DNA of 37,773 bases, from NCBI GenBank assembly GCA_018812345.1, contig JAHJDR010000012.1, positions 1 through 37,773 of the forward strand, given 5' to 3'. The position numbers and the translations under genes were made by a program. Every line of letters begins with the position of its first letter. The stretch's first letter is position 1. Positions 1,406-37,690 of this stretch are shown in pieces. Under the pieces are notes generated by a model, which was not told the DNA's origin, made no database searches, and saw only the letters and a program-made list of their open reading frames with translations. This DNA is from a bacterium. GTDB taxonomy: Bacteria; UBA10199; JADGCS01.

Positions 1406-1660
1406 TTATGCTCCTGATTGTTGGCCAGCTTAAGTGACAGATATTTTCTTAATTGGCCTTTTTTTAGATGTGGTTCGCAGGTTGCTTGTCCTGCCTATTT
1501 ATAGAAGCAATTACAATGCCAAGTATGAGGGAAAAAAGGAGGCGCTAAGTACTTGTTTTTATAGTTGTGTGAGGAGGGGAAAAGGTTATCCACAGTCAAA
1601 AAACACAACACTTTTCTCACTTTAGGAAAGATCGTTTTTCATATTGAGAGGAAAACTTCT

Positions 1661-1689
1661 AAATATCAATAAAATCAACAGGCTATATA
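1661..1689 (+). promoter_or_regulatory. Promoter-like motif: direct ATCAA repeats plus a -10-like TATATA
   Basis: AAATATCAATAAAATCAACAGGCTATATA. It matches 23050-23079 at 26 of about 31 positions with one indel. It lies about 90 nt upstream of the 1777 start. Confidence 0.4.
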
Positions 1690-1776: not shown

Positions 1777-3288
1777 ATGGTCGATAAAGCACAACAAGCT
1801 AAATCAGTCATATTCCCTGTTTATGAAGGGGCAGGTCTTGCCTATGATATTGCGCGTTTTAGTGTGGAATATAATCAGGACAAGAAATGGACAGATTTAA
1901 CTCTTCCTCCCATGAATCTAGCGCGCCCTGAGCATGAACTGGCACCTGAAGCAGCTGCTGTCGGGGCTTTTTTAGAGCTCTCACAGATGGGGCTACGTGG
2001 TGTAATGCGACCAACCTATGTTTTTAATCCCCCTAAATTATATTCTGATAATGAGGTAACAACCAGAGATTATCCTCAGCTTCAAACAGGCATGTTTAAT
2101 CGCCTCACAGGCTCATTGGGTACGGATTGGATGGTTAGACAGGCCCTTGGTAATACCTACATGTATAACCGAGCAGAGTTTAGTGATGAGCCCTTTAATT
2201 CTTCCATGGCCTATGCGTACGGGGCGATGTTCTATCTCAACGCCATTTCAACGCCTTTAGAAATGCAGGCTACACAAAATATTGGCAATAAAGGGGTGGG
2301 GTGTACAGACGGCGCGATTAATGACATTAAAGGTCTTTTTAATTTTGAGACTTATGAAGAAGCGCAAGAGTTTTGTAATGCAGAGCAACCTGTTAATGGC
2401 GGACAAGATTTGGCAACCTACGATGATGAATATACTCAAGAAGAATGGGATGCCTTAAATGCTGAATGGGAAAATAAATTTTTAGAACTATCTGCTGTAA
2501 ATCGTTCTCTCTATACTTTTGGACAAGGTTCGCGTTTAACCACAATGATAAATTCTTCTCTGGGTGGTTTTCAGGCCTTGGAATTATATGATGGCAGACC
2601 CTCTGCTGGCACAATAGCCTTTGCTATTAGTGTACCCATAACACAATTTGCTTTGGCCCATAAAAGGGCAAAAGAACAAGGTGAACCGCGCAATGCTGAG
2701 GGTAAAATTGTGCCCATGAGCACGGAAAATGCGGTGTTGACTTTATCGGCTCATACGCTTGGTGGTTTACAAGCAAGTTTTATTGAAGACAAAGAAGTTT
2801 TACGAGCCGTTGGCGCCATGAATGGCATGGCTATTGATTGGTATAGTCCGCAAGTACACAGACAATTATATGCGGTATCTCTTGATACGGGTGCGTCTCA
2901 AGTGGCACCATTAATTAATGTTGTGATGCCTGTTTTAGAAGGCGGCCAGCATTTAAGCGGTGGTTTTCGATATGGCGCAGCTCTTGACGATGCCTCTACA
3001 CCTGGTGAAAAAGTCATGCTGCATGGAACGGCTGCACTTTATGGTGGTATTTATCTTGGTCGTACAATTGAAGCGGGGCAAGCAGAGCCACAAGTGTGGG
3101 CTAATTTTGGTATAAATACAGGCGTTTTTGGCGTCAGTACTTTAGTTGGTTATTTAACACGTAATACACCTTTTGGTCGTGTGATGAATGGTGAGCTTGT
3201 AGGAGATAGGCCAGGCGGCTTAGCTTCTTTACGTATAACAGGTGGTCCAAATGGTACGACAGGTCTTGGAATAGCAGGAGAATTTTAA
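1777..3288 (+). CDS. Hypothetical protein (503 aa), first gene of the giant-lipoprotein block
   Basis: Long ORF with GAGG 8-11 nt upstream. No N-terminal signal peptide. The C-terminal third has Gly/Ala-rich hydrophobic stretches and ends ...GLGIAGEF. Confidence 0.8.
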   Translation: MVDKAQQAKSVIFPVYEGAGLAYDIARFSVEYNQDKKWTDLTLPPMNLARPEHELAPEAAAVGAFLELSQMGLRGVMRPTYVFNPPKLYSDNEVTTRDYPQLQTGMFNRLTGSLGTDWMVRQALGNTYMYNRAEFSDEPFNSSMAYAYGAMFYLNAISTPLEMQATQNIGNKGVGCTDGAINDIKGLFNFETYEEAQEFCNAEQPVNGGQDLATYDDEYTQEEWDALNAEWENKFLELSAVNRSLYTFGQGSRLTTMINSSLGGFQALELYDGRPSAGTIAFAISVPITQFALAHKRAKEQGEPRNAEGKIVPMSTENAVLTLSAHTLGGLQASFIEDKEVLRAVGAMNGMAIDWYSPQVHRQLYAVSLDTGASQVAPLINVVMPVLEGGQHLSGGFRYGAALDDASTPGEKVMLHGTAALYGGIYLGRTIEAGQAEPQVWANFGINTGVFGVSTLVGYLTRNTPFGRVMNGELVGDRPGGLASLRITGGPNGTTGLGIAGEF

Positions 3289-3291
3289 TGA

Positions 3292-3357
3292 GTCTCACGT
3301 CGCTCGTCTCACGTCTCACGTAAATTAACGCTAGACGATAGACGCTAGACGCTAGAC
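3292..3357. repeat. Heptamer-array hairpin (GTCTCAC-type arm / CTAGACG-type arm)
   Basis: Left arm GTCTCAC GTCGCTC GTCTCAC GTCTCAC G (3292-3320). Loop TAAATTAA. Right arm CGCTAGACGATAGACGCTAGACGCTAGAC (3329-3357). The arms pair at about 5 of every 7 positions. Confidence 0.85.
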
Positions 3358-3366
3358 AAAACAACA

Positions 3367-6300
3367 ATGATACGACGGCTAAGCAAATACATAATCGCAC
3401 TTATCGCTTTTCTACTCATTTTCGCTAGTTGTGCTTCCGAAAATCAAGCCATAGATCTTGCTGAAATTGCAGACAATGATTCTAATACAGGTGATGGTGG
3501 TTCCTTTTATCCTGATGCAAGTGGCTCAACCAATATTTGCGATGAAGATGAAGATGGGAATTGTATTGATGAAGCGACGATTAGTTCTATCATGCTGAAC
3601 AATCAACAGCTTGATTATAATATGAGCGAGCTTGATGATATTGAGTGTCAGTCGCTAGGACTTCCTTCAGGTGTTTCTTTTGAAGCAGAAATAGATCAAG
3701 ATAATACAAGTCTTGTTGACGGTATTTACCAATTTACAGTCATGAATGCGAGTGGTGGTTATTCTGAAGGCCGTGTAACAGGTGCTGGAGATATTACAAT
3801 TTGTTACATGCGTTCCAGCATTGGAACACATTCTGGACAAGTGAAAATTCTTCTCAATGCGAGCAGCGTTTCATCTTCTGCCTATGCGTACATAATAAAA
3901 ACATCAGGACAAACACTCGCCCCTCTTTTTACCATAACAAATCCCACTGAAGGGTTGATTATAGATAAGCGAGATGGGCATCATGAGGGTGTTGACAGTG
4001 CTGAAGGAGATTATTTATTAACCGTAACAGGAACAGTTAATCTTGATTTGCAAACCATTTTTGAAAAGGGATTAAATACAGACCTTTATATCGAAGCTGA
4101 TGGTGTTAAATATAAGACAAGCTTTAGTGAGAGTGGTAGCTTTTCAAAACAAGTGGGTGTGCCACAGGTTGAGGGTATTTATGCGGTTAAAGTTTCTCTT
4201 AATACAAACAGAGATAGTGTTTTAGCAAAAACAATTAATGTTGTTGTGGCAGGTGCTCCTGATTTAGAAATTGAAGTACGCGATGTTTCAGAAACAGAAA
4301 TTGACACAACAGCGCCAACAGATCTTCCTTATCTTATTGTTGGGCTGCGCATTTCAAATTTAGCGACATCTGGATCAAGTGAAACAGACATGCCTGTGGT
4401 CTTGTCTGATATTGCCTTTAATGGCGAAGAGCTTTATCCAAATACATCTATTTGGTATGATGAAAGTTGGTCTTGGTGCGAGTCTAAAGAACTAACATCA
4501 GAAGACACAAAAGGATTTACAGGCGTAAACACCTTATGCATTCCTCTTGATCATATAACAGAGCTTCAAGATGGTGTTAATACGATTACCGCAAAAGCAA
4601 CCAATGTGCTTGGTGAAAGCTCTGTAAGCTACACACTGATCATTGATAATGATAAGCCTATTATAACGGTTACGAGCCCAGGTCAAAATCAGCTTTATGC
4701 TCCTGGGCAAACAAAAATTACAGTTTCAGGAAAAGTTAAATATTTTGCACCACTTGATTCGAGTCTTGCCTCCTCTAAACCAACGCCTGCAAGTGGTGAT
4801 GTGGGCAGTTATTGTCAGCCCACAGAAGAAGATGATTCAGATTGTCCGGCGTCGAGTGTTAAAATGTGGTTTAACGTTTCAACCAGTGATGACAACTATC
4901 CTATCTATATATATCCGGATTACGCTGATAGCTATTCCACTGTTTCCCAAGCAGAACAAGAAGCCTATATGGATAGTGAAAGTGGGCAGCATGGCAATTG
5001 TTATACACAGCAAACAACCGAAGAAAATGATGATGGCTCAGAAACTATTGAAGAAAACATAGTTTGTGATGTGCCAGAAGGAAATTTTAAATTAACGCTG
5101 ACAGTACCTTCCCTAGATCACCACGCCCATATTAATCTTTATACGAATGTTTTAGAATTGCAGGCAGAAAGTGTGAAAGGACATAGAACAATTGAGGTTG
5201 TGACCTTTCAGGTTGGTGAAACAAGCTCACATAAGAGAAGTTTTAAATTGGGCCAAACAGCGCGAACATCAACATTAACCTCAGGTCAGCTGGGTCTTGT
5301 AGAAACGTCTTGTGGTGTGACAGAAGAGGTTTGTGTTAACCGAGCACCTGTGATGCTCAATGTTTCTGAAGGCCTTATTAGTCGTGATTCAGTTGAAGGG
5401 GCTAAGATATTAAAAGTTGTGGAACATTACCTTAATGAAAATCTTAGTTTTGCAGACGTGGCAAATGGTTGGATGAACTGGCCAAAAGATGATGACGATA
5501 ACATTGCTCTTGAAGAAGATTTTCAGAAACAATGGTTGGAATCTAGCGAGAGTGATGGCGTACGCTATGATGATTTTAAAGATTTACCACCTGCTTGGAA
5601 AAAAAAGTTTATTCAACAAGCTTTGCATAGCAATGTTATGGCCATGAAGTTTTGGGCCTGGGTTCGCTACATTGATTACTTACAGGATTCTGAGGATTCA
5701 GATTGTGATATCCATCCTGAACAATGCTATTTTGAGCGAGAAGGCAACCCAGAAGATGACTACAATGTTGCTCTAGATAAGTGTGGTGAAGTGATTACCT
5801 CGTCTTTTGTGCCTATTGGTGATTTTATTCGCGTGGCAGAAACATTTAAAGACTATGACACAGATCGCATACGCTTGTGGCCAGAATGGCCAGATATTGC
5901 GGGCACGGATTTTGAGTATAATGATTTTGTATCTGGCAAATGGCTTGTTCAAAGTTTGAACCTAAAAGCAAATGGTTATGTGGATGCTGATGTGTGCATT
6001 GTTCCTGATGATGAAGCTCTTTATGATTCTTATCTTCTCAATGGGTGTGATGCGAATGTTGATAGTGCTGATGTGCCAGCTTTTTGGGGCCATTTTGTTT
6101 CTTACAATCTTGTAGAGGGTGGGCTTCTTGGTGAAAACAATGCCTTGCCCATTAATGATGAAACGATTCCCATGGTATGGTCTGTTGGTAAGATTCGATT
6201 AACATTTGAAGATGTTATTCAGGTAACAAAAGAAAAAATTGGTGATGTTTGGGCAAATAAAATTAATATTTTTGAAGATAAAATTAATATTGTTCAATGG

Positions 6301-8205
6301 GACGAGTTGGAAGATTTGTTTAAAGCAGGTGTGATGCACGCGCAAACCATTCAAGTAGAGCCTTTTTCTAACTGCCCAGCCTATTATGCCCAAAAGCACC
6401 CAGGCTATGAAATTCCCTTTGGTTGCTCAAATAGTGAAATGTCCAACTACCCCTTTGTGTTAGAGTTGAACTCAACAAAAGGACAGGACGTATATATAGG
6501 ACTAATGGATAATGGTGCGAGTTCCTATATGTTGGGTGTGGTTTGGCAAGGTGTGATAGAAACCTTTAAGAAAATGGTTGGCTGCATGGATACTGAAATG
6601 GTTAACCCCATGATCTCTTCTCATTATGATTATCCTGAGTGGGTATGGGAAGGTGGCGCCATGTCTTTAGATTTTGAATGGGAAGAATTTAATTTTGGTG
6701 CGAACATTGAAAATAGTGATCTGAATATTTTTGATGGTGGTATTACAGCGAGAGTGCCTTTAAGTCTCGGTGTTGATGGTGTGCCCATGACATCATTCAT
6801 AAATATGATAAGCTCACCCACTGGATTCAATTTGGGACAAACATCTAAGCTTGGCAGTTTCAGAACAGCAACAGAAGCGCATACCAAAGGACATCTTGTG
6901 CGTTCCCAACAAAACAATTATTTAGAAGGGTATCCCTTAACAAGTGATAGCCCTCAAACAGAGGCTTTTCTGGGGTTGTCCATTAATATAGAAGAAATTG
7001 TTAATGCCGCTTCATATTTAATTTTCAAAAAAGGTCCCCTATCACTTCTAGAAACCTTTGAAGTGGAAGAGTTAGAAAAAAACACAAACTGGAGTTTGGG
7101 TGTTGATAAGGTAATACTCGGTCGTTTTGATATTTGTAATATAGCGGGCCTGATTGGTTCTGAATTAGCACCATCTCTTTTATTTGCTACAACTCAATCT
7201 TTATTTAATGAATCATCGCTACACTTAGATGTTATTTTAGATCCTGATTATCCCGTAACACTTTCCTTAAATCCCATTGAGGGTGCTGGCAGCAACGCTA
7301 CAGAAATTCAATTGGGTGTGTCCAACTTACAAATTGGTATCAAAGAACTTGTGGCTTATACACGTAATGGCGACGTTCAGGCTAATGTCTATGAAAACCC
7401 CAAAGATCAGGAAGAGCTATTGCGTCTTCGTCTCGATGGAGTGATCAAGGTGAGGGTTGTTTATTACAAAGAGCTCAGACAGATTCACGTATACTTACCA
7501 GGTTTTACAGAGCAAAACGTTCATGTTAGCATTGTTCCCGGACGTGGTGGGCCAACGTATGATGATGTGAATGTGGTAACAGATGTGCTCAATGGTGTGA
7601 TCGCAGCTGTTTTTGATAAAATGGGCAAAGACATCTATGAGGATTTTGATGATGATGGCAATCTTGATCCTACTATTGCCAACCCAACACTTGTGGTGAC
7701 GCTAAAAGGTAATGATGAATATGGTCCGGGCACATTTAATGTTGCCAGCTTAGAAGACTTTGAATTTGAATTAAAAGTTGAAGCTGCCGAAAACGCTTCT
7801 TGTGGCGATGATATTCCTTATTATTCAGAAGAAGTAGATTATCCACAAAGACCAGATATGTTTAACAATTCTAAAACGAAAAATGTAGGTAGTTCTGTGC
7901 TCAAATCTTCGAGCAAGCTCCCTCAGCTGACAGGTGATTTGCAGCCAATTAGTCTGGATCTTAGTAAGGACTATACAATACATATGTGGAACGATCCCTG
8001 TAAGTTTCTCTATCCTGGAAAGTTAGTTAAAGAAGAAGATGGCACGTTTACTAGAGAAGAAGATGTTTTAAGAGAAACGCTTTGTGATTTTGGAATCAAA
8101 GATGTTGTGATCGATCCTGTGATCGAGTTTGATAATGATGAAGGTTATATTCATGTTTCAGCTGACTTGTTTATTGAGTTGGAGAATTGGCTTATAGATG
8201 ACTAA
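3367..8205 (+). CDS. Giant acidic Cys-rich lipoprotein (1612 aa), function unknown
   Basis: Uninterrupted 4.8 kb ORF. Lipoprotein signal MIRRLSKYIIALIAFLLIFASC. It has many D/E residues and about 28 Cys, mostly in local pairs, which suggests a disulfide-rich extracytoplasmic protein. Confidence 0.9.
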   Translation: MIRRLSKYIIALIAFLLIFASCASENQAIDLAEIADNDSNTGDGGSFYPDASGSTNICDEDEDGNCIDEATISSIMLNNQQLDYNMSELDDIECQSLGLPSGVSFEAEIDQDNTSLVDGIYQFTVMNASGGYSEGRVTGAGDITICYMRSSIGTHSGQVKILLNASSVSSSAYAYIIKTSGQTLAPLFTITNPTEGLIIDKRDGHHEGVDSAEGDYLLTVTGTVNLDLQTIFEKGLNTDLYIEADGVKYKTSFSESGSFSKQVGVPQVEGIYAVKVSLNTNRDSVLAKTINVVVAGAPDLEIEVRDVSETEIDTTAPTDLPYLIVGLRISNLATSGSSETDMPVVLSDIAFNGEELYPNTSIWYDESWSWCESKELTSEDTKGFTGVNTLCIPLDHITELQDGVNTITAKATNVLGESSVSYTLIIDNDKPIITVTSPGQNQLYAPGQTKITVSGKVKYFAPLDSSLASSKPTPASGDVGSYCQPTEEDDSDCPASSVKMWFNVSTSDDNYPIYIYPDYADSYSTVSQAEQEAYMDSESGQHGNCYTQQTTEENDDGSETIEENIVCDVPEGNFKLTLTVPSLDHHAHINLYTNVLELQAESVKGHRTIEVVTFQVGETSSHKRSFKLGQTARTSTLTSGQLGLVETSCGVTEEVCVNRAPVMLNVSEGLISRDSVEGAKILKVVEHYLNENLSFADVANGWMNWPKDDDDNIALEEDFQKQWLESSESDGVRYDDFKDLPPAWKKKFIQQALHSNVMAMKFWAWVRYIDYLQDSEDSDCDIHPEQCYFEREGNPEDDYNVALDKCGEVITSSFVPIGDFIRVAETFKDYDTDRIRLWPEWPDIAGTDFEYNDFVSGKWLVQSLNLKANGYVDADVCIVPDDEALYDSYLLNGCDANVDSADVPAFWGHFVSYNLVEGGLLGENNALPINDETIPMVWSVGKIRLTFEDVIQVTKEKIGDVWANKINIFEDKINIVQWDELEDLFKAGVMHAQTIQVEPFSNCPAYYAQKHPGYEIPFGCSNSEMSNYPFVLELNSTKGQDVYIGLMDNGASSYMLGVVWQGVIETFKKMVGCMDTEMVNPMISSHYDYPEWVWEGGAMSLDFEWEEFNFGANIENSDLNIFDGGITARVPLSLGVDGVPMTSFINMISSPTGFNLGQTSKLGSFRTATEAHTKGHLVRSQQNNYLEGYPLTSDSPQTEAFLGLSINIEEIVNAASYLIFKKGPLSLLETFEVEELEKNTNWSLGVDKVILGRFDICNIAGLIGSELAPSLLFATTQSLFNESSLHLDVILDPDYPVTLSLNPIEGAGSNATEIQLGVSNLQIGIKELVAYTRNGDVQANVYENPKDQEELLRLRLDGVIKVRVVYYKELRQIHVYLPGFTEQNVHVSIVPGRGGPTYDDVNVVTDVLNGVIAAVFDKMGKDIYEDFDDDGNLDPTIANPTLVVTLKGNDEYGPGTFNVASLEDFEFELKVEAAENASCGDDIPYYSEEVDYPQRPDMFNNSKTKNVGSSVLKSSSKLPQLTGDLQPISLDLSKDYTIHMWNDPCKFLYPGKLVKEEDGTFTREEDVLRETLCDFGIKDVVIDPVIEFDNDEGYIHVSADLFIELENWLIDD

Positions 8206-8229
8206 AGACTAAAGTCCAAAGACTAAAGT
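8202..8229. repeat. CTAAAGA heptamer array (left arm around the four-helix-bundle gene)
   Basis: CTAAAGA CTAAAGT CCAAAGA CTAAAGT. The TAA stop of the 3367..8205 ORF (8203-8205) lies inside the first unit. Confidence 0.85.
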
Positions 8230-8242
8230 TGGAGATGTTGTT

Positions 8243-8632
8243 ATGTCGAAATTTTAACGTTTTGAAGATATTGAAAGCTGGAAAAAAGCAAGAGAGCTTA
8301 ATAAAAAAATATATGAATTAACTAATACTGAAAGATTTAATAAGGATTTTGGATTTAAAGACCAAATTAGAAGAGCTTCATTATCTATAAGCAGTAATAT
8401 TGCAGAGGGTTTTGAAAGAGGTGGAGACAAGGAATTTTTCCAATGCTTGTCCATAGCTAAAGGTTCTTGTGGAGAAGTTAGGTCGCAGCTGTATTTAGCC
8501 TATGATATTAAGTATGTTTCTAAAGAAGAAGCTGAAATGTTATTAGAAGAGGCTTCTGAGATTAGTAAAATGATAAATGGATTAATGAAATATTTAAGGA
8601 GTTCAGAATTTACAGGAAAAAAATACAAATGA
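8243..8632 (+). pseudogene. Four-helix-bundle protein (23S rRNA intervening-sequence protein / Avd-like family) with an in-frame TAA at codon 5
   Basis: The frame reads MSKF*RFEDIESWKKARELNKKIYELT...QIRRASLSISSNIAEGFERGGDKEFFQCLSIAKGSCGEVRSQLYLAYDIKYVSKEE.... This matches the family hallmarks FEDLxVWQKA and R(R)AxxSIxxNIAEG. There is no ATG, GTG or TTG between the TAA (8255-8257) and the TTG at 8447. Confidence 0.75.
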
Positions 8633-9036
8633 CTCAATTAAGAAAAAATAATACCCTCTTTGTATTAAAACTAACTTTAGTCTTTAGTCTTTGGTCTTTA
8701 GTCTTTACAAGTTGTTCCACATTCTACGGTGGTACAACGAGTTCTGAGGGGGATATGAGTGTTTCAGCCTCTCCGACCGAGATAGCTATTAGTGGTGATG
8801 CGGGTACAACCAGTCATCGCACAATTACGTTTTCTAATGCGTCAGACCAGAGTTTTGAAATTCATAATATGGCTTTTGTAGATAATGATTGTGGGGCCTA
8901 TTCTGTTTATAATGTGCTCGATGAAGCCAATAATGTTCTCTATCAAACAGGTAATCCTATTTCTATTAGCGTTGTTTCTGGGGCAAGCATTAGTATTAAT
9001 CTGCAATTTAGCCCCACATCTTGTAAAACAACATAA
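8629..9036 (+). CDS. Lipoprotein, N-terminal part (135 aa), ended by an in-frame TAA
   Basis: The ATG overlaps the upstream TGA (ATGA). Signal peptide and lipobox ...LVFSLWSLVFTSC. Beta-sandwich-like pattern (ITFSNASDQSFEIHNM...ISINLQFSP). Confidence 0.7.
   Translation: MTQLRKNNTLFVLKLTLVFSLWSLVFTSCSTFYGGTTSSEGDMSVSASPTEIAISGDAGTTSHRTITFSNASDQSFEIHNMAFVDNDCGAYSVYNVLDEANNVLYQTGNPISISVVSGASISINLQFSPTSCKTT
8674..8708. repeat. TCTTTAG heptamer array (right arm, reverse complement of CTAAAGA) inside the signal-peptide codons
   Basis: ACTTTAG TCTTTAG TCTTTGG TCTTTAG TCTTTAC. Its reverse complement matches 8202-8229 at 25 of 28 positions. It encodes LVFSLWSLVF. Confidence 0.85.
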
Positions 9037-9063
9037 TACACAACAACATTTATTATTTATTAT

Positions 9064-9906
9064 ATGATGGGGGAAACTGAGCTGTCTGACGCGGTTTCTT
9101 TGTTCACAACAGTTACAGATAATGCGCCTGATGCTGTTGTGTGTGATGAGGTTTCCAGAAGTTATTATGACGAATATGATAACCCCACAGAACGATCTCT
9201 GCCCGTTCTAGCTGATGGCAAGTCATACTATTTAAGAATTGATAAACTAAGCGCGTACATTCAAACAACAGGTGCTTTTGCTGCTTACGCGACTCAGGTA
9301 AGCACGCACTTGTATTTAGATGTGATTCCCGAAGCTGATCGCTACCAGCCTGTTTACTTGCCCTTTACAACAGATGAATCTGGCAATGTGACAGTAGCTG
9401 AAATTGATGCCTGTTCTGGTTTTGGAATGCCAACACCAATAACAGACACATTCTTTTTAGCCGCACCTGTTGCTGTGAATACAGCCGAGGCTTTTATAGG
9501 TTCAATTGATCGCGCGGAAACCCCTGGTCGCTTTTCTGTTCCCAATATTGTGCTCAGGATGTCTTCTTATATAAATAACTCTAATTCCCTTTTGCAAAGT
9601 ACAGAGGGCTATTTTGATGTTAATATTAATGTGGCCAGCCTCACGTCAGGGGAAACAGCTTCAAATGATTTTTTGCTAGATGTGCCTGCAGATACAGATG
9701 ATGATGGTGAACCTTTGCTCAATATTGTAGATGATAAGCTTGTGGGCAAAGATATAAGACATGGCACTGTGACTCTGGTTGGTATTGGCGAGTTTATTCA
9801 AGATGATAACACAAAGCTTTCTAACGAAGCTGTGTCTGCGATTATTGATAATGAATCCTATCTGTTTATTCAGATTGAAGGCGTTGTGACGCAGGAGATT
9901 GATTAG
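9064..9906 (+). CDS. Hypothetical protein (280 aa), in the same frame as 8629..9036 and probably its continuation
   Basis: 9064-8629 = 435 nt, a multiple of 3. Only the TAA at 9034-9036 separates the two ORFs. No signal peptide of its own. Confidence 0.65.
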   Translation: MMGETELSDAVSLFTTVTDNAPDAVVCDEVSRSYYDEYDNPTERSLPVLADGKSYYLRIDKLSAYIQTTGAFAAYATQVSTHLYLDVIPEADRYQPVYLPFTTDESGNVTVAEIDACSGFGMPTPITDTFFLAAPVAVNTAEAFIGSIDRAETPGRFSVPNIVLRMSSYINNSNSLLQSTEGYFDVNINVASLTSGETASNDFLLDVPADTDDDGEPLLNIVDDKLVGKDIRHGTVTLVGIGEFIQDDNTKLSNEAVSAIIDNESYLFIQIEGVVTQEID

Positions 9907-9910
9907 TTAT

Positions 9911-9987
9911 TCGTTGCTCGTTTTCCGTTGTCCGTATGAAGATAAAAAACGGACCACGGACCACGGACCACGGGCCACGGACCACGA
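9911..9987. repeat. Heptamer-array hairpin (TCGTTGC-type arm / (CGGACCA)x5 arm)
   Basis: Left arm TCGTTGC TCGTTTT CCGTTGT CCGT (9911-9935). The loop is A-rich. Right arm is CGGACCA x5 with one G variant (9950-9987). The inner 11 positions pair 10 of 11. Confidence 0.85.
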
Positions 9988-9992
9988 GAAGT

Positions 9993-12900
9993 ATGCTAAA
10001 GAGAATAAAAACATATTTCCTCATAGTATTATTCGTAGTAGTAGCTCTAACCCCAGCCTGTGGTGGTGAGGGTGACGTTGTAGATGCTTTGCCAGATATT
10101 AGTCCAACGCCAGATTTTACACCTGCGGCGGATACGAGTTTGGCTGATATGGCTATTAATACTTTCTTAGACAATGGTATTAGTATTACTGTTGATCCTG
10201 AATTTGTTGATTTCAATGACGAGAATGGCGCTATTAGTGAAGACGACGAATTGTATGCCGCTTTTAGCCTGACAAACAATTCAGGGACAACGCGCTCCTT
10301 TAACCTCAAAATTTATTCTGTATCAACGGGCTTTTCTATTGTTGATGAAAATAAAGAAAATCTGGGCAGCTATAATTACATAGAGGTTGCTCAGGGTGAA
10401 ACAAGAGAATTCTATTTAAAATTCAATGCGTGGGTTTTTGGAACACAAACAAGTTACATCACGATTACAGCAGATATTGATGGTTATATCCGATTTCCTA
10501 TGAGAGCTTCTGTGACAGGGCCCACAAGTTTTAAAATAATTTCCACAGGCTATTTTTGCACAGATGACAATGCGCCATCTATATCTTCTTTAGACTTTTA
10601 TAAAGCAGCCTATGGCCAAACAAAAATTCAAGGCATTAAGATCTGTAATACAGGCGGTGAGGACATTAAAATAAATATGGCAAGTCTAGAAGTTGGTGAT
10701 GATGCTACGCAATCGGATGCTATGCTAGGGAATGCTTTTCAAGATTTTATTTGGCAGATTACAGATGAGATTGATAGCACCTTTTCTTTTGGCCAAGAAC
10801 CAACAGCAACGAAGAGCTTTACGGAACCAAATTTTATAGATTACACAGGATCTCTTGATGATCCCGCCGCGAGCTATGATGTCCGCGTTTATCATACCGG
10901 TGCTGCCGTTCAAAATATTCTCATAGAAGCGGGAAAAATTCTCATGCTGGATGTTTTATACAGTCCGACAATGGCTGTAGAGGCGCCAGAAGGCTCTCTT
11001 TATAATTCTGTTGGGGTTAATGCCTTGCTAAAACTCAGCACATCGCTGGGAACAATAAGAATTCCTCTTGTGGGGGCTACGGGTGGTCAAGAGCCCATGC
11101 TTGAAATGGCCTATCGTTTGAGTGGCGAAGATGTTTATAAACCTATAGATCTTTATTCTGATGGTGCCGCAGCATACTTTGGTCGTGTGGAACTTTTTTT
11201 GGACTGGGTTTCTGCCAATTCATCTGTTGCTGAAATCAAAATAGCTAATGTGGGTAGTGGTTCAAAAGATCTTGAATTTTATGGTGGCGCTTTAAATGGT
11301 TTTTATGAGTATTATTGGGAAACAGGTGACAGTTTAAGTTTTCCCGTTACCCTCTCTTCTGGAGAAGAAGATTCTTTCTTTATGCGTTATTTGCCTGCGG
11401 CAACAAAAGCGCTCGATGAGGCTTATGATGCTACATGGGATTTTGGCCAATTTTATTTTGAACACACAGGTGGTAATGGACCACAAGGTAAGGTTTCGCT
11501 TGTCGGTGAACAAGATGCTGGCTACTCTGTTGAGCTTTTTTATGGTGGTGCTAAATTAGAGCATGAATATGAGGATGGTCGTAAAAAGAATTTATGTGTT
11601 TTTTCTACAGATCCTGCAAACCCAACAATGATTACGTTTAAAGTGGTTAATAATAATAAACTCAATAGTATGAGTGTTGATTGGGATATTAGAGATGATG
11701 ATGGTAATATAACAGCAACACCGAGTAGTGGTTTTGTTTCTGTTGACCCTGATTCTTCTTATTCATTTACAGTGGGTTTTGTGGCTTCTGGTGATGTTGT
11801 GGGCACAATGGTTTCGGGAGCGTTTAATGTGACGACAGAGTTTCCAGAGGCAGAAGCTCTTTATGCCGCACAGACTCAAGACCTTGTAGATCGAATTTTT
11901 TTAGTGCCATTTCAAGCCATGGCAAGCGAGTCAGGAGAGAGTAATTTGTGTAATACGGGTGTTCTCGGTGAAGACGGTACAACCCGAGCTACCTTTGTTA
12001 TTGATCGCGTGACCATGGTGATGACCGATCTTATTGAGTCAGCACATAATCCACCACCTTTCCGCTTTCATTTGCCGCTTGATGTGAATGCTCAGGACGG
12101 AACAGTGCGCATCGCAGAGCCTATTGAATTACAATTTAATGAAGAAGATCTTAATCCTTTAAAGTCTGTTCGTTCCTTTACGCATCAGGCAACCAATATT
12201 CAGGGTTGTGCCCCCTTACCTACTAATCCCTACAGCTTAGAGTATAAAAAGGGGAGCTGGACAGGAAAAGGTATTGAATGCTCGGATGATGGAGAGGGAA
12301 CAATTAAATACACAACGCCTTTGGGAGAAAATATTACTATTGATTCAGATACAGCTTGTATGCCCACAAATGGTGGGGAAGAAGTTATAGATGAAAATGG
12401 TGTTCGTTGGATGGTTGTGTACCATGAATTTGTTAAGTTTGATAACTGTGATGTTGAATACTATGGGAAAATAGCCACATTTGCTTACCGCCCTGATCTC
12501 GAAGATGTGAATGATGTCTTTAAGAGGGCTGAAGCGGCGCCTAATGAAAGTGAATCTTATTATGAAGGTGTTTACGGAGCTTATCAATATGGTTCCTACA
12601 TTACTTTCTTAGATGATACTAAATGTGCTGGTAATAAATATGGCCCAAGCTCGACACAAACTATTACGGATCCTGATGTTGTGAAAGATTGTTACAAGTC
12701 ATTGGCCTCAAAAAGTGATACGCGCCGACAAGATGGTTTTGTAAATGAATGCTCTTATTTTGTGTTTACTATTGATGAAGGTGTTGTGCCTGCTGATGCC
12801 ACTTCTGAAAATCCTGATTATGATTCTTGGGTAAGTTTTGGCACTTATGAGCCTCATGTGGATGATGAAGGGGAAACGCATGAAACTAAATATGATATAA

Positions 12901-13787
12901 CTATATATAATGTGCATTTTGTAGCCTATGTTTTAGGGGCAGGCGATCGTGGTATTTTCTTTAGTCACCCAGGGCATCTTGTTTATTCTGATATGTATGT
13001 GACCATCACAACAAAGCGCATTGCTGAGGAATCCTGGTATGATGGTGATTGGCAGCAACGTATTTCTTCTAATACAAGGCAGCACCTTGATAAGAACCAG
13101 ATTTTTCTAAAAGATGGGGAACGCTATGATACGAAGAAATTCTGGACAGAAGATGGTATTAATGAAGAGTTTAGTAATGTGATTGAGCAAAAAACCCTTG
13201 TTGATTCAGGTTTCAATTATGGTGGTTTTGGTAAGGGCGATTTTAGATTTTGGGGTGGTGATCCTAATGCCAAAACAATTATTTTTGCTGGTTGGCCTGT
13301 AAATTATGATGAACATAATCTTGTGCTTATGGTTGGTATTGGGGCTTTTAATGGTAAAGGAAATACGGCACCGTCATTTGCCAAAGCTGATGCCACAACA
13401 GGACAGGGTAAGCCCCTCTATTTTTCTTTTACAGGTTGTCTCATACCTGGCGAAGCTGCTGATAACCAGGGTTGCTTTGACTGGCATATTGATGACGGGG
13501 TTATGCCTGATGGCACGCCCTTGATTGATCTTTATAGCGAATCACAAATTGGCATGTTGCCTGATGGGTATGTTGATGAGCCTGGTGATTGTGCTAATTT
13601 AGAAAATGCAGGCTTTGCTGATCCCTCTAATCCTGATTATGATATGTATAAATACATGCCCTGTATTAATTATAAGATAATTGATGGTTTTGATCGTGAC
13701 CGTTACAAAAATTACTACGATAATTCGAATAAAATTGATTATGGCAATGACCCTTACGGTTCGTCTACCTGTGGTTACGGCAATTAG
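9993..13787 (+). CDS. Large Cys-rich lipoprotein (1264 aa) with repeated Ig-like/beta-sandwich modules, function unknown
   Basis: The ORF is open from 9936, but its first 19 codons translate the heptamer array. The ATG at 9993 gives MLKRIKTYFLIVLFVVVALTPAC, a lipoprotein-type signal. Recurrent 'xNxGxxxL'-type strands (FSLTNNSGTTRSF, IKICNTGGEDIKI, IKIANVGSGSKDL) resemble choice-of-anchor-D/ASH-like domains. Confidence 0.9.
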   Translation: MLKRIKTYFLIVLFVVVALTPACGGEGDVVDALPDISPTPDFTPAADTSLADMAINTFLDNGISITVDPEFVDFNDENGAISEDDELYAAFSLTNNSGTTRSFNLKIYSVSTGFSIVDENKENLGSYNYIEVAQGETREFYLKFNAWVFGTQTSYITITADIDGYIRFPMRASVTGPTSFKIISTGYFCTDDNAPSISSLDFYKAAYGQTKIQGIKICNTGGEDIKINMASLEVGDDATQSDAMLGNAFQDFIWQITDEIDSTFSFGQEPTATKSFTEPNFIDYTGSLDDPAASYDVRVYHTGAAVQNILIEAGKILMLDVLYSPTMAVEAPEGSLYNSVGVNALLKLSTSLGTIRIPLVGATGGQEPMLEMAYRLSGEDVYKPIDLYSDGAAAYFGRVELFLDWVSANSSVAEIKIANVGSGSKDLEFYGGALNGFYEYYWETGDSLSFPVTLSSGEEDSFFMRYLPAATKALDEAYDATWDFGQFYFEHTGGNGPQGKVSLVGEQDAGYSVELFYGGAKLEHEYEDGRKKNLCVFSTDPANPTMITFKVVNNNKLNSMSVDWDIRDDDGNITATPSSGFVSVDPDSSYSFTVGFVASGDVVGTMVSGAFNVTTEFPEAEALYAAQTQDLVDRIFLVPFQAMASESGESNLCNTGVLGEDGTTRATFVIDRVTMVMTDLIESAHNPPPFRFHLPLDVNAQDGTVRIAEPIELQFNEEDLNPLKSVRSFTHQATNIQGCAPLPTNPYSLEYKKGSWTGKGIECSDDGEGTIKYTTPLGENITIDSDTACMPTNGGEEVIDENGVRWMVVYHEFVKFDNCDVEYYGKIATFAYRPDLEDVNDVFKRAEAAPNESESYYEGVYGAYQYGSYITFLDDTKCAGNKYGPSSTQTITDPDVVKDCYKSLASKSDTRRQDGFVNECSYFVFTIDEGVVPADATSENPDYDSWVSFGTYEPHVDDEGETHETKYDITIYNVHFVAYVLGAGDRGIFFSHPGHLVYSDMYVTITTKRIAEESWYDGDWQQRISSNTRQHLDKNQIFLKDGERYDTKKFWTEDGINEEFSNVIEQKTLVDSGFNYGGFGKGDFRFWGGDPNAKTIIFAGWPVNYDEHNLVLMVGIGAFNGKGNTAPSFAKADATTGQGKPLYFSFTGCLIPGEAADNQGCFDWHIDDGVMPDGTPLIDLYSESQIGMLPDGYVDEPGDCANLENAGFADPSNPDYDMYKYMPCINYKIIDGFDRDRYKNYYDNSNKIDYGNDPYGSSTCGYGN

Positions 13788-13799
13788 GGTAAGAAAATA

Positions 13800-13857
13800 C
13801 GAAATCCGAATTTCGAAATCCGAAACAAAATAGTTTGGATTATTGATTGTCTTTTTT
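13800..13857 (+). repeat. CGAAATC heptamer array with hairpin and T-run (likely end of the operon)
   Basis: CGAAATC CGAATTT CGAAATC CGAAAC (13800-13826). It pairs with GTTTGGATT (13833-13841). T6 at 13852-13857. Confidence 0.65.
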
Positions 13858-13886: not shown

Positions 13887-15014
13887 ATGACAAAAAAAAT
13901 TCCAGCTTATCTGGTCCTAAAAGATGGAACAGTGTTTGAGGGGTTTGGTTTTGGTTCATTAAACACCAATTCTGGTGAAGTTGTTTTCAATACATCCATG
14001 ACAGGTTATCAAGAAATTCTCACAGATCCATCCTATGCAGGACAGATCGTTGTGATGACCTATCCTCACATTGGCAATTATGGCATCAACCCAGAAGATG
14101 TGGAGTCGAGAAAGATTTATGCACAAGGCTTGGTCGTGAAAGAATTATCAGAAATCTATTCTAACCACCGGGCCACGTTATCGTTGGATGCTTATTTGAA
14201 AAAAGAAGGTGTTCCAGGAATCTCTGGCATTGATACCCGCGCCCTTGTGCGCCACATAAGGAATAAAGGCGCCATGCCAGCGCTATTGTCTGTGGGATCT
14301 AAACAAACAGCAAAACAACTCATTAAAGAGGCTAATAACTTACCAGAGATGAAAGGCCAGAATCTGGCAAAAGAGGTCTCAACGAAGGGCGTAAGGCGCA
14401 GGGAGCAAGGCGTAAGGCGCAGGGAGCAAGGCGTAAGGCAAAAACAGCGCTTCAATGTGATTGCCTATGATTATGGAATAAAGTTAAATATTTTGAGGTT
14501 GTTGGAAGCGCATGGGTGTAACGTTACGGTAGTGCCTTATGATTATTCAGCGGATAGAATTCTTAAGTCTAAAACGAAAATAGATGGTGTGTTTCTGTCC
14601 AATGGACCAGGAGATCCCGCGCCTTGTTTTCAAGCCATTGAGAATGTCAAAAAGCTTATTGGGAAAAAACCAATATTTGGTATTTGTTTAGGCCATCAAA
14701 TATTAGCCTTAGCCCTTGGGGCAAAAACATATAAATTAAAATTTGGTCATCATGGTGGTAATCAGCCGGTAAAAAATCTTGAAAAAGAAACAGTAGAGAT
14801 TACTGCGCAAAACCACGGTTTTGCTGTTGATCCACAAACATTGCCCCACGATGTAAAGATCACACACATTCATTTGAATGATCAGACGGTTTCAGGGATC
14901 AAGCATGAAACCTTGCCATTGTTTTCAGTGCAGTATCATCCCGAAGCTAGTCCGGGGCCGCATGATAGCACGTATCTCTTTCATCAATTTGTTGAATTGA
15001 TGAAAGAGAAATGA
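13887..15014 (+). CDS. carA: Carbamoyl-phosphate synthase small (glutaminase) subunit
   Basis: Full-length similarity, including the GICLGHQ catalytic Cys motif and QYHPEASPGPHD. Confidence 0.95.
   Translation: MTKKIPAYLVLKDGTVFEGFGFGSLNTNSGEVVFNTSMTGYQEILTDPSYAGQIVVMTYPHIGNYGINPEDVESRKIYAQGLVVKELSEIYSNHRATLSLDAYLKKEGVPGISGIDTRALVRHIRNKGAMPALLSVGSKQTAKQLIKEANNLPEMKGQNLAKEVSTKGVRRREQGVRRREQGVRQKQRFNVIAYDYGIKLNILRLLEAHGCNVTVVPYDYSADRILKSKTKIDGVFLSNGPGDPAPCFQAIENVKKLIGKKPIFGICLGHQILALALGAKTYKLKFGHHGGNQPVKNLEKETVEITAQNHGFAVDPQTLPHDVKITHIHLNDQTVSGIKHETLPLFSVQYHPEASPGPHDSTYLFHQFVELMKEK
14388..14440 (+). repeat. In-frame 21-bp tandem repeat (2.5 copies) inside carA
   Basis: GGCGTAAGGCGCAGGGAGCAA x2 plus GGCGTAAGGCA. 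Each unit is three degenerate heptamers (GGCGTAA GGCGCAG GGAGCAA). It encodes GVRRREQ GVRRREQ GVRQ in the inter-domain linker. Confidence 0.9.
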
Positions 15015-15053
15015 AAAATGAAAAATACATAAATGAAAAATGAAAAAGTAAAA
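15009..15053. repeat. AATGAAA heptamer array filling the carA-carB spacer
   Basis: ...GAGAAATGAAAAATGAAAAATACATAAATGAAAAATGAAAAAGTAAAAG. The carA stop TGA (15012-15014) is inside the array. Confidence 0.8.
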
Positions 15054-18324: not shown

Positions 18325-18352
18325 TTACTAAAGAATATCATAAATTGAACTT

Positions 18353-18465
18353 AGTTCAATAGCCAATAATCAATAATGAATATCCAATATCCATTTGGTA
18401 GTTTCAAATCAGCACAGTACTAACTTGATGATTGGATATTGTTCTGTTGGATATTGAATATTGAA
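18353..18465. repeat. CAATATC/GATATTG-family hairpin element, copy 1
   Basis: It starts AGTTCAATAGCCAA. Left arm CAATAATCAATAATGAATATCCAATATCCAT. Right arm ACTTGATGATTGGATATTGTTCTGTTGGATATTGAATATTGAA. Confidence 0.85.
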
Positions 18466-18467
18466 AT

Positions 18468-19481
18468 TTAAAAAATGATTAATGACTTCAAGACCGTTCG
18501 CGTATTCATATCGCTTACCGCCTGATCAAACGCCTGCAGAGGATATTCTTGAAACATATTTGCCAAACCTAAGTTTTCATCTTTAAGAATGTTAAAAGAT
18601 TTAACCAATGAATCTGGTGTGGCAGAATAGCTTGTTATGATTTGGAGTTCGCGATGGTATAGCTCTGATGTATCAAGAGGGCCCACTTCACCAGAGAGGT
18701 GGCTGAAAAGATTTACAAATCCGCCATTACGAATCCAACTCAAAGATTCATTGAGCATGGTTGCCGGGCCGGCTGTGAAAATAATGCCATCTAAACCGCG
18801 GTTATTTGTTTTTGATTTTATGTGTTCTAAGACCAAGTCATTTACAGAGGCAAAGGCCTGATCAACACCCCAAGTTAGCGATTTCTCAGAGCGCTCAGGA
18901 TCAATATCAAGCCCGATAATATGACAATCAAGGCGTTTCAAAAGTTTTGTCATCATGAGGCCAATGGAGCCTAAACCAACAATCAAGATAGTATCATTGT
19001 TTTTTAAGGGAAGGCGATCAATGCTTCTTACGCAACAAGCCAAAGGCTCCATAAAAATAGCTTCTTTCCATGGCATGTTGTCTGGTATTTTTTGTGTTGT
19101 GTGTTTTAAGTGGGCTTCAGGGATGCAAATGTACTCGGCAAAACCGCCAGGAACAAAGTTTGTTGTCTTGAATGTGTCACACATGGAAAAACTGCCATGT
19201 GTGCAGTAGTGGCAATCAAAGCAGGGAACGTGGTGAGCCACAACAATTAATTCATTTTCATTATAGTCTTGAACAGCAGCCCCTTTTTTTACAATGCGTC
19301 CCACAAGTTCATGACCTAAGACAGTTGTTTTTTTCAAAAGCTTTAAATTTATTTTGAGAAGATCTGTACCACAAAGCCCGCAACCGAGTGTTTGTATGAG
19401 GACATCTTTGGGGCCTAGCTTTGGCTCTTCTATGGTAACAAGTTGGCTTGTGCCGTCTGTGTTGTTTTGTATTGCTTTCAT
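18468..19481 (-). CDS. Zinc-dependent medium-chain alcohol/polyol dehydrogenase family protein
   Basis: GCGLCGTDL, GHELVGRIV, a structural-Zn Cys cluster (CFDCHYCTHGSFSMC) and a Rossmann motif GLGSIG. Confidence 0.85.
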   Translation of the reverse strand: MKAIQNNTDGTSQLVTIEEPKLGPKDVLIQTLGCGLCGTDLLKINLKLLKKTTVLGHELVGRIVKKGAAVQDYNENELIVVAHHVPCFDCHYCTHGSFSMCDTFKTTNFVPGGFAEYICIPEAHLKHTTQKIPDNMPWKEAIFMEPLACCVRSIDRLPLKNNDTILIVGLGSIGLMMTKLLKRLDCHIIGLDIDPERSEKSLTWGVDQAFASVNDLVLEHIKSKTNNRGLDGIIFTAGPATMLNESLSWIRNGGFVNLFSHLSGEVGPLDTSELYHRELQIITSYSATPDSLVKSFNILKDENLGLANMFQEYPLQAFDQAVSDMNTRTVLKSLIIF

Positions 19482-19486
19482 GGCTT

Positions 19487-19566
19487 GGTTATCGGTTATA
19501 TCGGTTATCGGTTATCGGTTATCAGTTATCGGTTATCGGTTATCGGTTATCGGTTGTCGGTTATCG
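19487..19566. repeat. (GGTTATC)x11 tandem array abutting the ADH start codon
   Basis: Eleven units with three variants (GGTTATATC, AGTTATC, GGTTGTC). The array begins 6 nt from the ADH ATG (19481, minus strand). T10 homopolymer at 19572-19581. Confidence 0.9.
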
Positions 19567-19681
19567 TGGTGTTTTTTTTTTATAGTTTTATTATTATTGG
19601 AGAGCAATAATCAATATCAAATTGATTAATAGGTTGTTTAATGCCATATTTGCTATATTGTTAAGCAATTGTAATCGCTTA

Positions 19682-19725
19682 CGATAACACGATAACCTAT
19701 AACCGACAACCTATAACCGATAACC
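19682..19725. repeat. GATAAC-type heptamer array (inverted partner of 19487-19566) abutting the NRDE start codon
   Basis: CGATAAC ACGATAAC CTATAAC CGACAAC CTATAAC CGATAAC. It ends 4 nt before the ATG at 19730. Confidence 0.85.
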
Positions 19726-20500: not shown

Positions 20501-20606
20501 AGTTCAATAGCCAACACTCAACAGAACAATATCCAATCATCAAGTAAGATGGCTAGTATTTTTAGTTGAATATTGGATATTGATTATTGGATATTGGATA
20601 TTGAAA
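20501..20606. repeat. CAATATC/GATATTG-family hairpin element, copy 2
   Basis: It starts AGTTCAATAGCCAA, as copy 1 does. The left arm contains CAACAGAACAATATCCAATCATCAAGT (20519-20545), the exact reverse complement of 18423-18449. Right arm TTGAATATTGGATATTGATTATTGGATATTGGATATTGAA. Confidence 0.85.
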
Positions 20607-23046: not shown

Positions 23047-23049
23047 ATT

Positions 23050-23079
23050 AAATATCAAATAAAATCAAGAGGTTATAAT
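23050..23079 (+). promoter_or_regulatory. Promoter-like motif: direct ATCAA repeats plus -10 TATAAT
   Basis: AAATATCAAATAAAATCAAGAGGTTATAAT, near-identical to 1661-1689. It lies about 115 nt upstream of the spt-like start. Confidence 0.45.
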
Positions 23080-25385: not shown

Positions 25386-25455
25386 TCGTCGCTCGTCTCT
25401 CGTCGCTCGTCGCTCGTATGAAACGATAGACGCTAGACGCTAGACGCTAGACGCT
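25386..25455. repeat. Heptamer-array hairpin (TCGTCGC-type arm / CTAGACG arm)
   Basis: Left arm TCGTCGCTCGTCTCTCGTCGCTCGTCGCTCG. Loop TATGAAA. Right arm CGATAGACG(CTAGACG)x3 CTG. The Nnr stop codon (25447-25449, minus strand) lies in the array. Confidence 0.85.
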
Positions 25456-26952: not shown

Positions 26953-27024
26953 CGAGACAGTCGAGACAGTCGAGACAATCGAGACAGTCGTGTTGTTGAT
27001 GCAACGATTGTCTCGATTGTCTCG
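26953..27024. repeat. 9-nt-period array hairpin (CGAGACAGT / CGATTGTCT)
   Basis: CGAGACAGT x4 with one AAT variant (26953-26990). Inverted partner CGATTGTCT x2 (27005-27024), which is perfectly complementary to the CGAGACAATCG variant. Confidence 0.85.
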
Positions 27025-28446: not shown

Positions 28447-28538
28447 TATTCAATAATGAATATCCAATATCCATGTTTTAAGCCTGTTTGGTTATGGATT
28501 TAAGGGGTGTTGATTATTGGATATTGAAGATTGATAAC
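28442..28538. repeat. CAATATC/GATATTG-family hairpin element, copy 3
   Basis: The left arm contains CAATAATGAATATCCAATATCCAT (28451-28474), identical to 18371-18394. Right arm TTGATTATTGGATATTGAAGATTGATAAC. Confidence 0.85.
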
Positions 28539-32477: not shown

Positions 32478-32541
32478 CCGTGTCCCGTGTCTCGTGTCTT
32501 GTGTTCGGCATTCTGAACACTGAGCACTGGACACTGAGCAC
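32478..32541. repeat. Heptamer-array hairpin (CCGTGTC arm / GAGCACT arm)
   Basis: CCGTGTC CCGTGTC TCGTGTC TTGTGTT C, then loop GGCATTCT, then GAACACT GAGCACT GGACACT GAGCAC. GTG/CAC cores pair every 7 nt. Confidence 0.85.
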
Positions 32542-32550
32542 TTATAGTTC

Positions 32551-33294: not shown

Positions 33295-33320
33295 AAAGTG
33301 AATATTGAAAAGTGATAAAA
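33283..33320. repeat. AATGAAA heptamer array (second locus)
   Basis: AATGAAA AATGAAA AGTGAAT ATTGAAA AGTGATA AAAT. The TGA stop (33292-33294) and the last codons (NEK) of the upstream gene lie inside it. Confidence 0.8.
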
Positions 33321-33321
33321 T

Positions 33322-37615: not shown

Positions 37616-37690
37616 GCTGGATATAATGCCACATTAGGGATGTTTGGATCAATGGGAATGTGCGTTGATAGCAGAGATACTATAGAGCGT

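Follow-up and report, generated by a model that had tools for sequence, protein, structure and literature searches.

What does a 12-kb block of large, co-directional genes without an assignable function encode, and do its parts belong together? The block in question lies at positions 1777-13787 on the + strand of contig JAHJDR010000012.1 (assembly GCA_018812345.1; GTDB lineage UBA10199, JADGCS01), which was analyzed over a window of 37,773 nucleotides (nt). It comprises four long open reading frames (ORFs), here called A (1777-3288), B (3367-8205), C (8629-9906) and D (9993-13787), and one small inserted gene (8243-8632). An earlier reading of the DNA, hereafter the original prediction, had described five ORFs at these positions and proposed that they form one dedicated cell-surface apparatus. 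We confirm the positions and the product lengths of 503 amino acids (aa) for A, 1612 for B, 425 for C (interrupted) and 1264 for D. Synteny and the lack of family matches uphold the core of that proposal, a novel and co-conserved envelope lipoprotein system; the block is not a five-gene unit, and its repeats and common upstream motif count for little. On balance, we lean towards the reading that B-C-D is a vertically inherited operon for an undescribed, outer-membrane-anchored lipoprotein complex of one small uncultured lineage.

One line of evidence for this reading is the conservation of the gene set. Word-indexed searches recovered 11 relatives of B and 23 relatives of D, all of similar length, and a second search of this kind with the B alignment yielded no new members. 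Homologous loci of relatives are referred to by L-numbers, L096 being the 86%-identical relative and L004-L006 the 60%-identical relatives. The B, C, D succession recurs in 10 distinct relatives, even where identity has fallen to 24-33%, and the order (A-like)-B-C-D is seen in the window, L096, L004-L006, L001-L003, L093, L094, L095, L089/L090, L091 and L099, with an A-like gene in most. Across these cassettes B measures 1533-1893 aa, C 400-444 aa and D 1218-1345 aa, and the stop and start codons between cassette genes often overlap or nearly abut. The B and D proteins of L004 share 60% and 69% identity, respectively, with those of the window; in the most distant cassette, BLASTP aligned B over its full length (E-value 4e-105, 24% identity), with C at an E-value of 6e-23 and D 31-34% identical. 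The flanks differ fully between clades, featuring DTW and carAB in one setting, an RND adaptor, SPOUT and RNR in another, and elsewhere ribosomal, signal recognition particle (SRP) and trmD genes or toxin-antitoxin genes. The check that the original prediction had proposed, conservation and synteny in relatives, thus gave a clear answer: all relatives found retain B-C-D as a co-conserved, syntenic set in changing surroundings. The unit so delimited is B-C-D together with a variable upstream gene, not the five genes first envisaged, the inserted gene being specific to one clade.

The ratio of nonsynonymous to synonymous substitution rates (dN/dS) between the window and L096 was, among the cassette genes, lowest for D (0.063), followed by C (0.072), B (0.074) and A (0.086); carA had 0.049 and carB 0.030. 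From these low ratios we conclude that purifying selection acted on A, B, D and, despite its interruption, C up to the very recent past. The system is also rare. An exhaustive HMMER search of 1.84 billion representative proteins with a 990-position profile of the B C-terminal region returned only 52 with an E-value of at most 1e-3; the full-length B matches were each 1445-1886 aa long, with the match at the C-terminal end. Among 185,579 GTDB species representatives, pattern scans based on the B alignment yielded 2 loci and those based on the D alignment 5, a scan of GTDB genomes for close relatives with B alone found none, and IMG/VR held no relative of the cassette. The NCBI labels of five metagenome-assembled genomes with such loci conflict, naming Nitrospirales, Nitrospira and Deltaproteobacteria. 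A scan with carB did not inform the taxonomy, as it matched many phyla at only ~60% identity.

We accepted as lipoproteins those products whose N-terminal signal peptide is basic and hydrophobic and closes with a lipobox, [LVI][ASTVI][GAS]C. B (LIFASC|A, Cys22), C (VFTSC|S) and D (LTPAC|G, Cys23; the protein begins MLKRIK) all carry such a signal and are therefore predicted lipoproteins, that is, Lgt/LspA substrates. The D signal is read from the ATG at 9993, which is the real start and gives 1264 aa; the listed ORF start at 9936 sits within the heptamer-repeat array of the C-D spacer. Lipobox-like signals are retained in 9 of the 11 B homologues, in 22 of the 23 D homologues and in all aligned C homologues. 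The +2 residues next to the lipobox Cys are A, S and G, with no Asp, so that Lol avoidance would not be expected under the E. coli sorting rule, which may not hold in this lineage. All three products are strongly acidic, with D+E against K+R at 16.2% versus 6.3% in B, 13.2% versus 4.2% in C and 15.3% versus 6.6% in D, and they contain 25, 5 and 17 Cys, respectively, nearly all of which the families retain. At least 70% of members retain Cys in 23 alignment columns of the B family and 16 of the D family, and the conserved Cys often lie in local pairs (e.g., 58/66, 483/493, 649/656 and 1149/1161), a pattern that fits disulfide-bonded extracytoplasmic proteins. Composition and family alignments thus bear out the original description of three lipoproteins with lipobox signals, a strong D/E excess and many locally paired Cys.

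Profile searches assigned these proteins to hardly any known family. A, B, C and most of D had no family match in Pfam, NCBIfam, PADLOC, PHROGs or PDB sequence profiles, and divergent members of the B family had no Pfam domain. The PDB sequence profiles returned only noise for B, D, C and A (a nanobody; CEP192, E-value 0.022; lysyl oxidase, E-value 0.04), and no profile of a known secretion system, adhesin family, defence system or phage protein matched A-D. The exception is the N-terminal module of D, at residues ~66-160, where 20 of 23 family members match PF22073 (best E-value 4.8e-15) and where matches to immunoglobulin (Ig) domains of the ASH type include Cep192_D4, HYDIN, ASH and DUF1573; the D of the window itself reaches 20.7 bits, short of the Pfam cut-off of 35.5 for the ASH-type domain. 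In the C family, 3 of 9 members match PF22073 weakly, with a best E-value of 0.0015. The NCBIfam choice-of-anchor D model (NF012200, cut-off 45 bits) gave 12.2 bits and an E-value of 0.2 with an N-terminal fragment of C, and no match with D. Of the ASH/choice-of-anchor-D-like sandwich that had been proposed for the last two lipoproteins, the D part is thus well founded and the C part weakly so, the latter also through the hhalign comparison of C with D (E-value 6.9e-4).

The same comparison linked D to B (E-value 0.0025) and gave no match between C and B, both links being weak and confined to the N-terminal module. The idea that B, C and D are simple paralogues of each other was rejected, since only this module is weakly common to them. 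Because the hhalign links involve the module alone and the Pfam matches fall directly after the anchor, the three predicted products can be seen to be built in parallel: a signal peptide, the lipobox Cys, an acidic linker, an ASH/PapD-like sandwich (weaker in C and B) and a large domain unique to each. In B, ~600 aa of likely beta-sandwich modules, read from the sequence, precede a ~1000-aa family-specific alpha/beta region, which may contain a BPI/TULIP-like lipid-binding module; in C, the N-terminal ASH-like beta-sandwich is followed by a 280-aa family-specific C-terminal domain; and in D, the Ig-like module is followed at residues 600-1264 by a compact beta-rich domain with invariant motifs, the protein ending in STCGYGN. 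Many bacterial surface proteins with choice-of-anchor domains likewise carry a module of the ASH/PapD-like Ig class (PF22073 Cep192_D4, PF15780 ASH, PF22544 HYDIN/VesB Ig, PF07610 DUF1573 and choice-of-anchor D), which forms the first folded unit of D, and weakly of C and B, right after the anchor. They differ from the present proteins in their anchoring, which here relies on a lipobox instead of a PEP-CTERM, sortase or type IX secretion system (T9SS) signal, and more than 80% of each of B, C and D lies outside the domain and is without relatives.

Structure models extended this picture for D. AlphaFold2 (AF2), applied to residues 600-1264 (665 aa) with the 23-sequence alignment, produced one compact beta-rich domain with a predicted local distance difference test score (pLDDT) of 77 and a predicted template-modeling score (pTM) of 0.80. 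Foldseek returned no match with an E-value of at most 1e-3 for this model in PDB or BFVD, and the porin, YceI and vitellogenin entries that it listed (E-values 0.2-5) were judged to be noise. The C-terminal domain of D is thus confidently predicted and without a solved structural analogue. Placement in well-described families, which had been named beforehand as an outcome that would overturn the prediction, did not occur in the profile or structure searches run, and the statement that no enzymatic, secretion-system or adhesin signature is recognizable was upheld by Pfam, NCBIfam, PADLOC, PHROGs and PDB profiles as well as by AF2 with Foldseek. Among the libraries searched (Pfam, NCBIfam, PADLOC, PHROGs, PDB and BFVD), and as far as these tools see, the system is far from every described family or machine.

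Together, the comparisons show the predicted products of B, C and D to be co-inherited, constrained, lipobox-bearing, acidic and Cys-conserved, and to come from orphan families. In the reading that we favor, the three proteins would be exported by the Sec pathway, then lipidated and disulfide-bonded, and, tethered to the outer membrane, would assemble as one extracytoplasmic complex. Such a complex would probably be stabilized by calcium and exposed at the surface rather than at the periplasmic face of the outer membrane, and would serve the lineage as a structural or adhesive envelope apparatus. The nearest precedents in organization may be the Glt gliding complex of Myxococcus and the surface lipoprotein complexes of Bacteroidota, where several large lipoproteins are likewise encoded together, inherited as a block and presumably tethered to the outer membrane; the present proteins have no homology to their components, and the cassette and the genes beside it encode no motor, TonB-dependent barrel, ATPase or inner-membrane partner.

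Several points weigh against this reading. Assembly, localization and co-transcription of B-C-D are all predicted from sequence, and a scan for promoters and terminators gave counts not above those in shuffled sequence. The AF2 model of B(620-1612) was poor (pLDDT 52). The product of A lacks an export signal, which creates a topology problem for its contact with B-C-D in the envelope, and in this genome both C and the inserted gene are interrupted by nonsense codons. Cys-rich proteins are, moreover, atypical of classical S-layers.

The structural data also bear on a more specific alternative, in which B-C-D is a lipid-handling machine that binds lipids, or shuttles them between membranes or to and from the surface, by means of a TULIP-like module in B and perhaps the large curved sheets of D. 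We consider this unlikely. In its favor, we note that the best three PDB matches of the B C-terminal model in Foldseek, SPLUNC1 (E-value 0.011, probability 0.99), BSP30b with oleic acid (E-value 0.03) and BPIFA1 (E-value 0.05), all have the BPI fold, and that the insignificant top matches of D include YceI-like lipid binders and vitellogenin. The BPI-fold matches have probabilities of 0.85-0.99; their template-modeling (TM) scores reach at most 0.40, none has an E-value of at most 1e-3, and the underlying model is the low-confidence one, while the probabilities of the D matches are only 0.01-0.04. Compared with the BPI/LBP/PLUNC (TULIP) proteins, to which part of the B C-terminal model is likened by these three matches, the similarity is below significance and absent at the sequence level, and B is a 1612-aa lipoprotein where these are small soluble proteins of ~200-450 aa. 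We treat this weakly supported likeness as a lead, not a finding.

The cargo of such a machine could be the product of a serine palmitoyltransferase-like (SPT-like) gene at 23194-24435. This gene encodes an alpha-oxoamine synthase whose closest NCBIfam model is serine palmitoyltransferase, with 480 bits against a cut-off of 640, and the shortfall counts against that role. The link to it is a 30-nt motif, TAAATATCAATAAAATCAACAGGCTATATA, at 1660-1689 (+ strand), ~90 nt upstream of A, which recurs almost unchanged, save for a 1-nt indel, at 23048-23079, upstream of the SPT-like gene; two sites occurred in none of 100 shuffled sequences. The original prediction had taken the motif shared with the sphingolipid gene, along with size and co-orientation, as a sign of one dedicated cell-surface apparatus. 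The motif exists, but upstream of A it is only partly conserved, in degraded form, in the 86%-identical L096, and it is therefore weak evidence of co-regulation with lipid synthesis. A further argument against a lipid-handling role is that no cassette encodes an inner-membrane or ATPase partner.

It is likewise improbable that the three lipoproteins act independently of each other, as surface adhesins or coat proteins whose genes are adjacent only for co-expression. Bacterial giant genes most commonly encode acidic proteins with many Ig-like domains, which speaks for this possibility, as do the calcium-site-like motifs in B and C, among them a C-x-D-x-D-x-D-G-x-C loop at B residues 58-66, after the lipobox, and the presence in the window of an adhesin-like protein with FG-GAP and thrombospondin type-3 (TSP3) repeats. 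Against it stands the strict gene order with one-to-one-to-one stoichiometry and narrow length ranges, maintained at 24-33% identity and across changing flanks, which is more typical of the subunits of a complex than of adhesin arrays, since the latter expand, contract and shuffle. Long internal tandem repeats are, in addition, absent from B, C and D.

A third alternative turns on gene A, the first and fast-evolving gene of the cassette, whose product contains 2 Cys. A-like genes lie directly upstream of B in most clades, with none adjoining B in L091, and the A stop overlaps or nearly abuts the B start in L001, L093 and L004; A is judged a genuine operon partner of B-C-D. The A-like proteins could not be aligned across clades by BLASTP, and iteration with hidden Markov models failed to unite them; between the window and L004, A is only 28-32% identical, against the 60% of B and 69% of D. 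Across four unalignable clades, the A-like proteins nevertheless share a C-terminal tail, an alternating-hydrophobic strand with a terminal F/W. The tails read GLGIAGEF in the window, GVGVSGRW in L004, GFGATWTF in L001, FNLTWEF in L093, AGLSFRF in L094 and SVGIRF in L099; the tail is absent in L089, and the pattern occurs in ~1 of 79 other ORFs of the same loci. L094 encodes two tandem A-like paralogues (3-2824) that are 55% identical and have near-identical tails, ...PGLQAG[LV]SFRF. With its alternating hydrophobic residues and terminal F/W, the A C-terminus has the form expected of the beta-signal of outer-membrane beta-barrels, and as a sequence it resembles this signal or the C-terminal strand of chaperone-usher subunits.

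In no clade does an A-like protein have an N-terminal Sec, Tat or lipoprotein signal, and the window ORF cannot be extended upstream. This agrees with the original description of A as a protein without a Sec signal; the Gly/Ala-rich segments noted there are present and are only weakly hydrophobic. A role as an outer-membrane protein was rejected because there is no signal peptide, and a polytopic membrane protein because a Kyte-Doolittle scan of the window's A revealed no convincing transmembrane helices. Within the preferred reading, the tail may bind to the PapD-like modules by beta-strand augmentation. The third alternative goes further and makes B-C-D a display or docking apparatus for A as a replaceable cargo (an effector, an adhesin tip or a pore-former), with the tail bound by the PapD/ASH-like modules in the style of donor-strand complementation. 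The tail conserved among otherwise unalignable proteins, the divergence of A relative to B and D, the tandem duplication in L094, the close A-B junctions and the PapD-like fold at the start of all three lipoproteins (weakly supported for C and B) are what one would expect from such an arrangement. We nonetheless consider it very unlikely: A has no export signal, the loci encode no translocase or energy source, A is missing beside B in L091 and its tail in L089, and the short-distance dN/dS of A (0.086) is ordinary. A combination of this proposal with the lipid-handling one can be framed, in which B-C-D is a new outer-membrane lipoprotein machine with a PapD-like docking module in each subunit, a new ~650-aa fold in D and a TULIP-like region in B, which either traffics envelope lipids, possibly sphingolipid-type products of the SPT-like gene, or captures and displays the hypervariable, Sec-independent A through its tail. 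In both cases the envelope mechanism would be new and limited to a deep uncultured lineage; we assign this combination a low probability.

Finally, a mobile, viral or defence island is effectively refuted: toxin-antitoxin genes do flank the cassette in L091 and L095, and the family of the inserted gene includes the diversity-generating retroelement (DGR) protein Avd, to which the match is weak (E-value 2.5e-4), but the GC content equals that of the surroundings, no PADLOC or PHROGs match and no IMG/VR relative exists, the block contains no integrase or transposase, and the cassette adjoins housekeeping genes and is under like purifying selection.

The preferred reading, an envelope complex of B, C and D, leaves out the inserted four-helix-bundle gene (8243-8632, + strand), a member of the 23S rRNA intervening-sequence (IVS) protein family, which matches TIGR02436 over its full length with 130.6 bits (cut-off 24) and an E-value of 2.6e-38; PF05635 was recorded on the intact copy in L096. 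The gene had been described as nested. It sits instead between B and C, with its TGA overlapping the ATG of C. L096 has an intact copy of the gene and L004-L006 have none, which makes it a clade-specific insertion and not a member of the cassette. Inverted heptamer arrays enclose it, the left arm, (GACTAAA)n at ~8200-8230, overlapping the last codons and stop of B, and the right arm, (CTTTAGT)n at ~8673-8707, lying within C, where it encodes LVFSLWSLVF, the hydrophobic core of the C signal peptide. The inverted-repeat stem of 31 nt runs from the end of B to codons 15-26 of C, and the minimum-energy RNA fold pairs both arms around the whole inserted gene (z -2.69). The IVS of 23S rRNA likewise have a gene enclosed by a long inverted-repeat stem; the difference is that the present element occupies an mRNA spacer between two lipoprotein genes, not rRNA, and that the window copy has a premature TAA. 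An RNase III cut of the stem, as in rRNA, would sever the start codon of C.

The premature stop of the inserted gene is a TAA at codon 5 (8255-8257), where L096 has GAA, and C has one in-frame TAA at 9034-9036, where L096 has GAT. The two codons fall within 800 bp, each in place of an acidic-residue codon of L096, and are either very recent nonsense mutations or sequencing/assembly errors. Stop-codon reassignment was rejected as an explanation, given that A and B end in TAA and that L096 has sense codons at both sites.

Repeat-filled spacers had also been described for the block. The repeats are present: the A-B spacer (3292-3357) is an imperfect hairpin built from two heptamer arrays, GTCTCAC-like x4 and ACGCTAG x4, and the C-D spacer (9907-9986) has an imperfect heptamer hairpin with (ACGGACC)5.4 at 9949-9986. 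Tandem arrays of 7 nt (4-11 copies), usually in inverted, hairpin-forming pairs, occur, however, in nearly every spacer of the 37.8-kb window (3292-3357, 8200-8228, 8675-8707, 9949-9986, 13795-13825, 15009-15047, 18350-18470, 19487-19725, 20566-20603, 25386-25455, 26953-27024, 28436-28473, 32479-32542, 33282-33321, 34699-34729 and 37686-37773) and also in L004, and are therefore not a signature of this block. The heptamers differ between spacers and some recur, such as ACGCTAG at 3328, 25423-25455 and 37719-37773. Within coding DNA, in-frame arrays appear as 21-nt units in C (8675-8707) and in carA (14388-14439), where they add GVRRREQ-GVRRREQ-GVRQ. Geobacter metallireducens is reported to have comparable families of tandem heptanucleotide repeats (PMC2700814). 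We regard both the heptamer spacers and the four-helix-bundle gene as genome-wide elements that are unrelated to the system and lie outside it.

Other features of the leader and neighborhood deserve mention. Two stretches upstream of A, 1586-1594 and 1690-1776, are better conserved than the 30-nt motif, reaching as far as L004. The first is a perfect DnaA-box 9-mer, TTATCCACA, and the second a leader segment (GATTTTAGCAACTTTTTAGTGC...CCGATAATAG), both conserved in L096 and L004; GC skew indicated no origin at the DnaA-box site, and Rfam and tRNA scans of the window identified no RNA genes. On the - strand at 920-1405, a 161-aa protein without a family match is encoded, an opposite-strand neighbor of the cassette that is also found in L004 (168 aa) and on the P0001 contig. 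In other clades D is followed by a fifth gene (L001, 20606-21301; L093, 14131-14823; L089, 13250-14542; L094, 14357-15580; L099, 12254-13594), which is absent from the window's clade. Its product, a lipoprotein, is in L001, L093, L089 and L094 small, very acidic and Cys-rich, with 17-19% D+E and sometimes MopE-like metal-binding repeats; that of L099 is listed as an ORF only (446 aa).

Further along the window, a 751-aa protein with FG-GAP and TSP3 repeats (20664-22919, - strand) resembles the myxobacterial cell-cohesion protein MtsC, through a match (E-value 1.8e-23) that does not reach the cut-off, and is likely another calcium-binding surface protein. At 28566-30652, a LolA_like (PF17131) gene overlaps by 4 nt a 435-aa gene without a family match, and the two may form a carrier pair for lipoproteins or hydrophobic ligands. 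The fifth gene and the MtsC-like protein recall the Cys-rich acidic TSP3/MopE-like surface lipoproteins of myxobacteria-like organisms (e.g., cohesion proteins of the MtsC type), which B, C and D resemble in being acidic and disulfide-rich and through the calcium-site-like loop of B; B, C and D differ in holding isolated motifs, not arrays, in lacking MYXO-CTERM and in having no profile match.

For annotation, this locus teaches that neither the heptamer arrays nor the four-helix-bundle gene should be counted among the parts of the system. The cassette itself offers a compact three-to-four-gene target for structural biology and a possible lineage marker. If B-C-D is one machine, it would represent a novel type of diderm envelope complex, with ~50 known relatives in 1.84 billion representative proteins. 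More speculatively, the possible lipid-binding fold and the putative Sec-independent partner with its outer-membrane-style terminal strand may bear on how lipids other than lipopolysaccharide (LPS) reach the outer membrane and how proteins without a signal reach the envelope.

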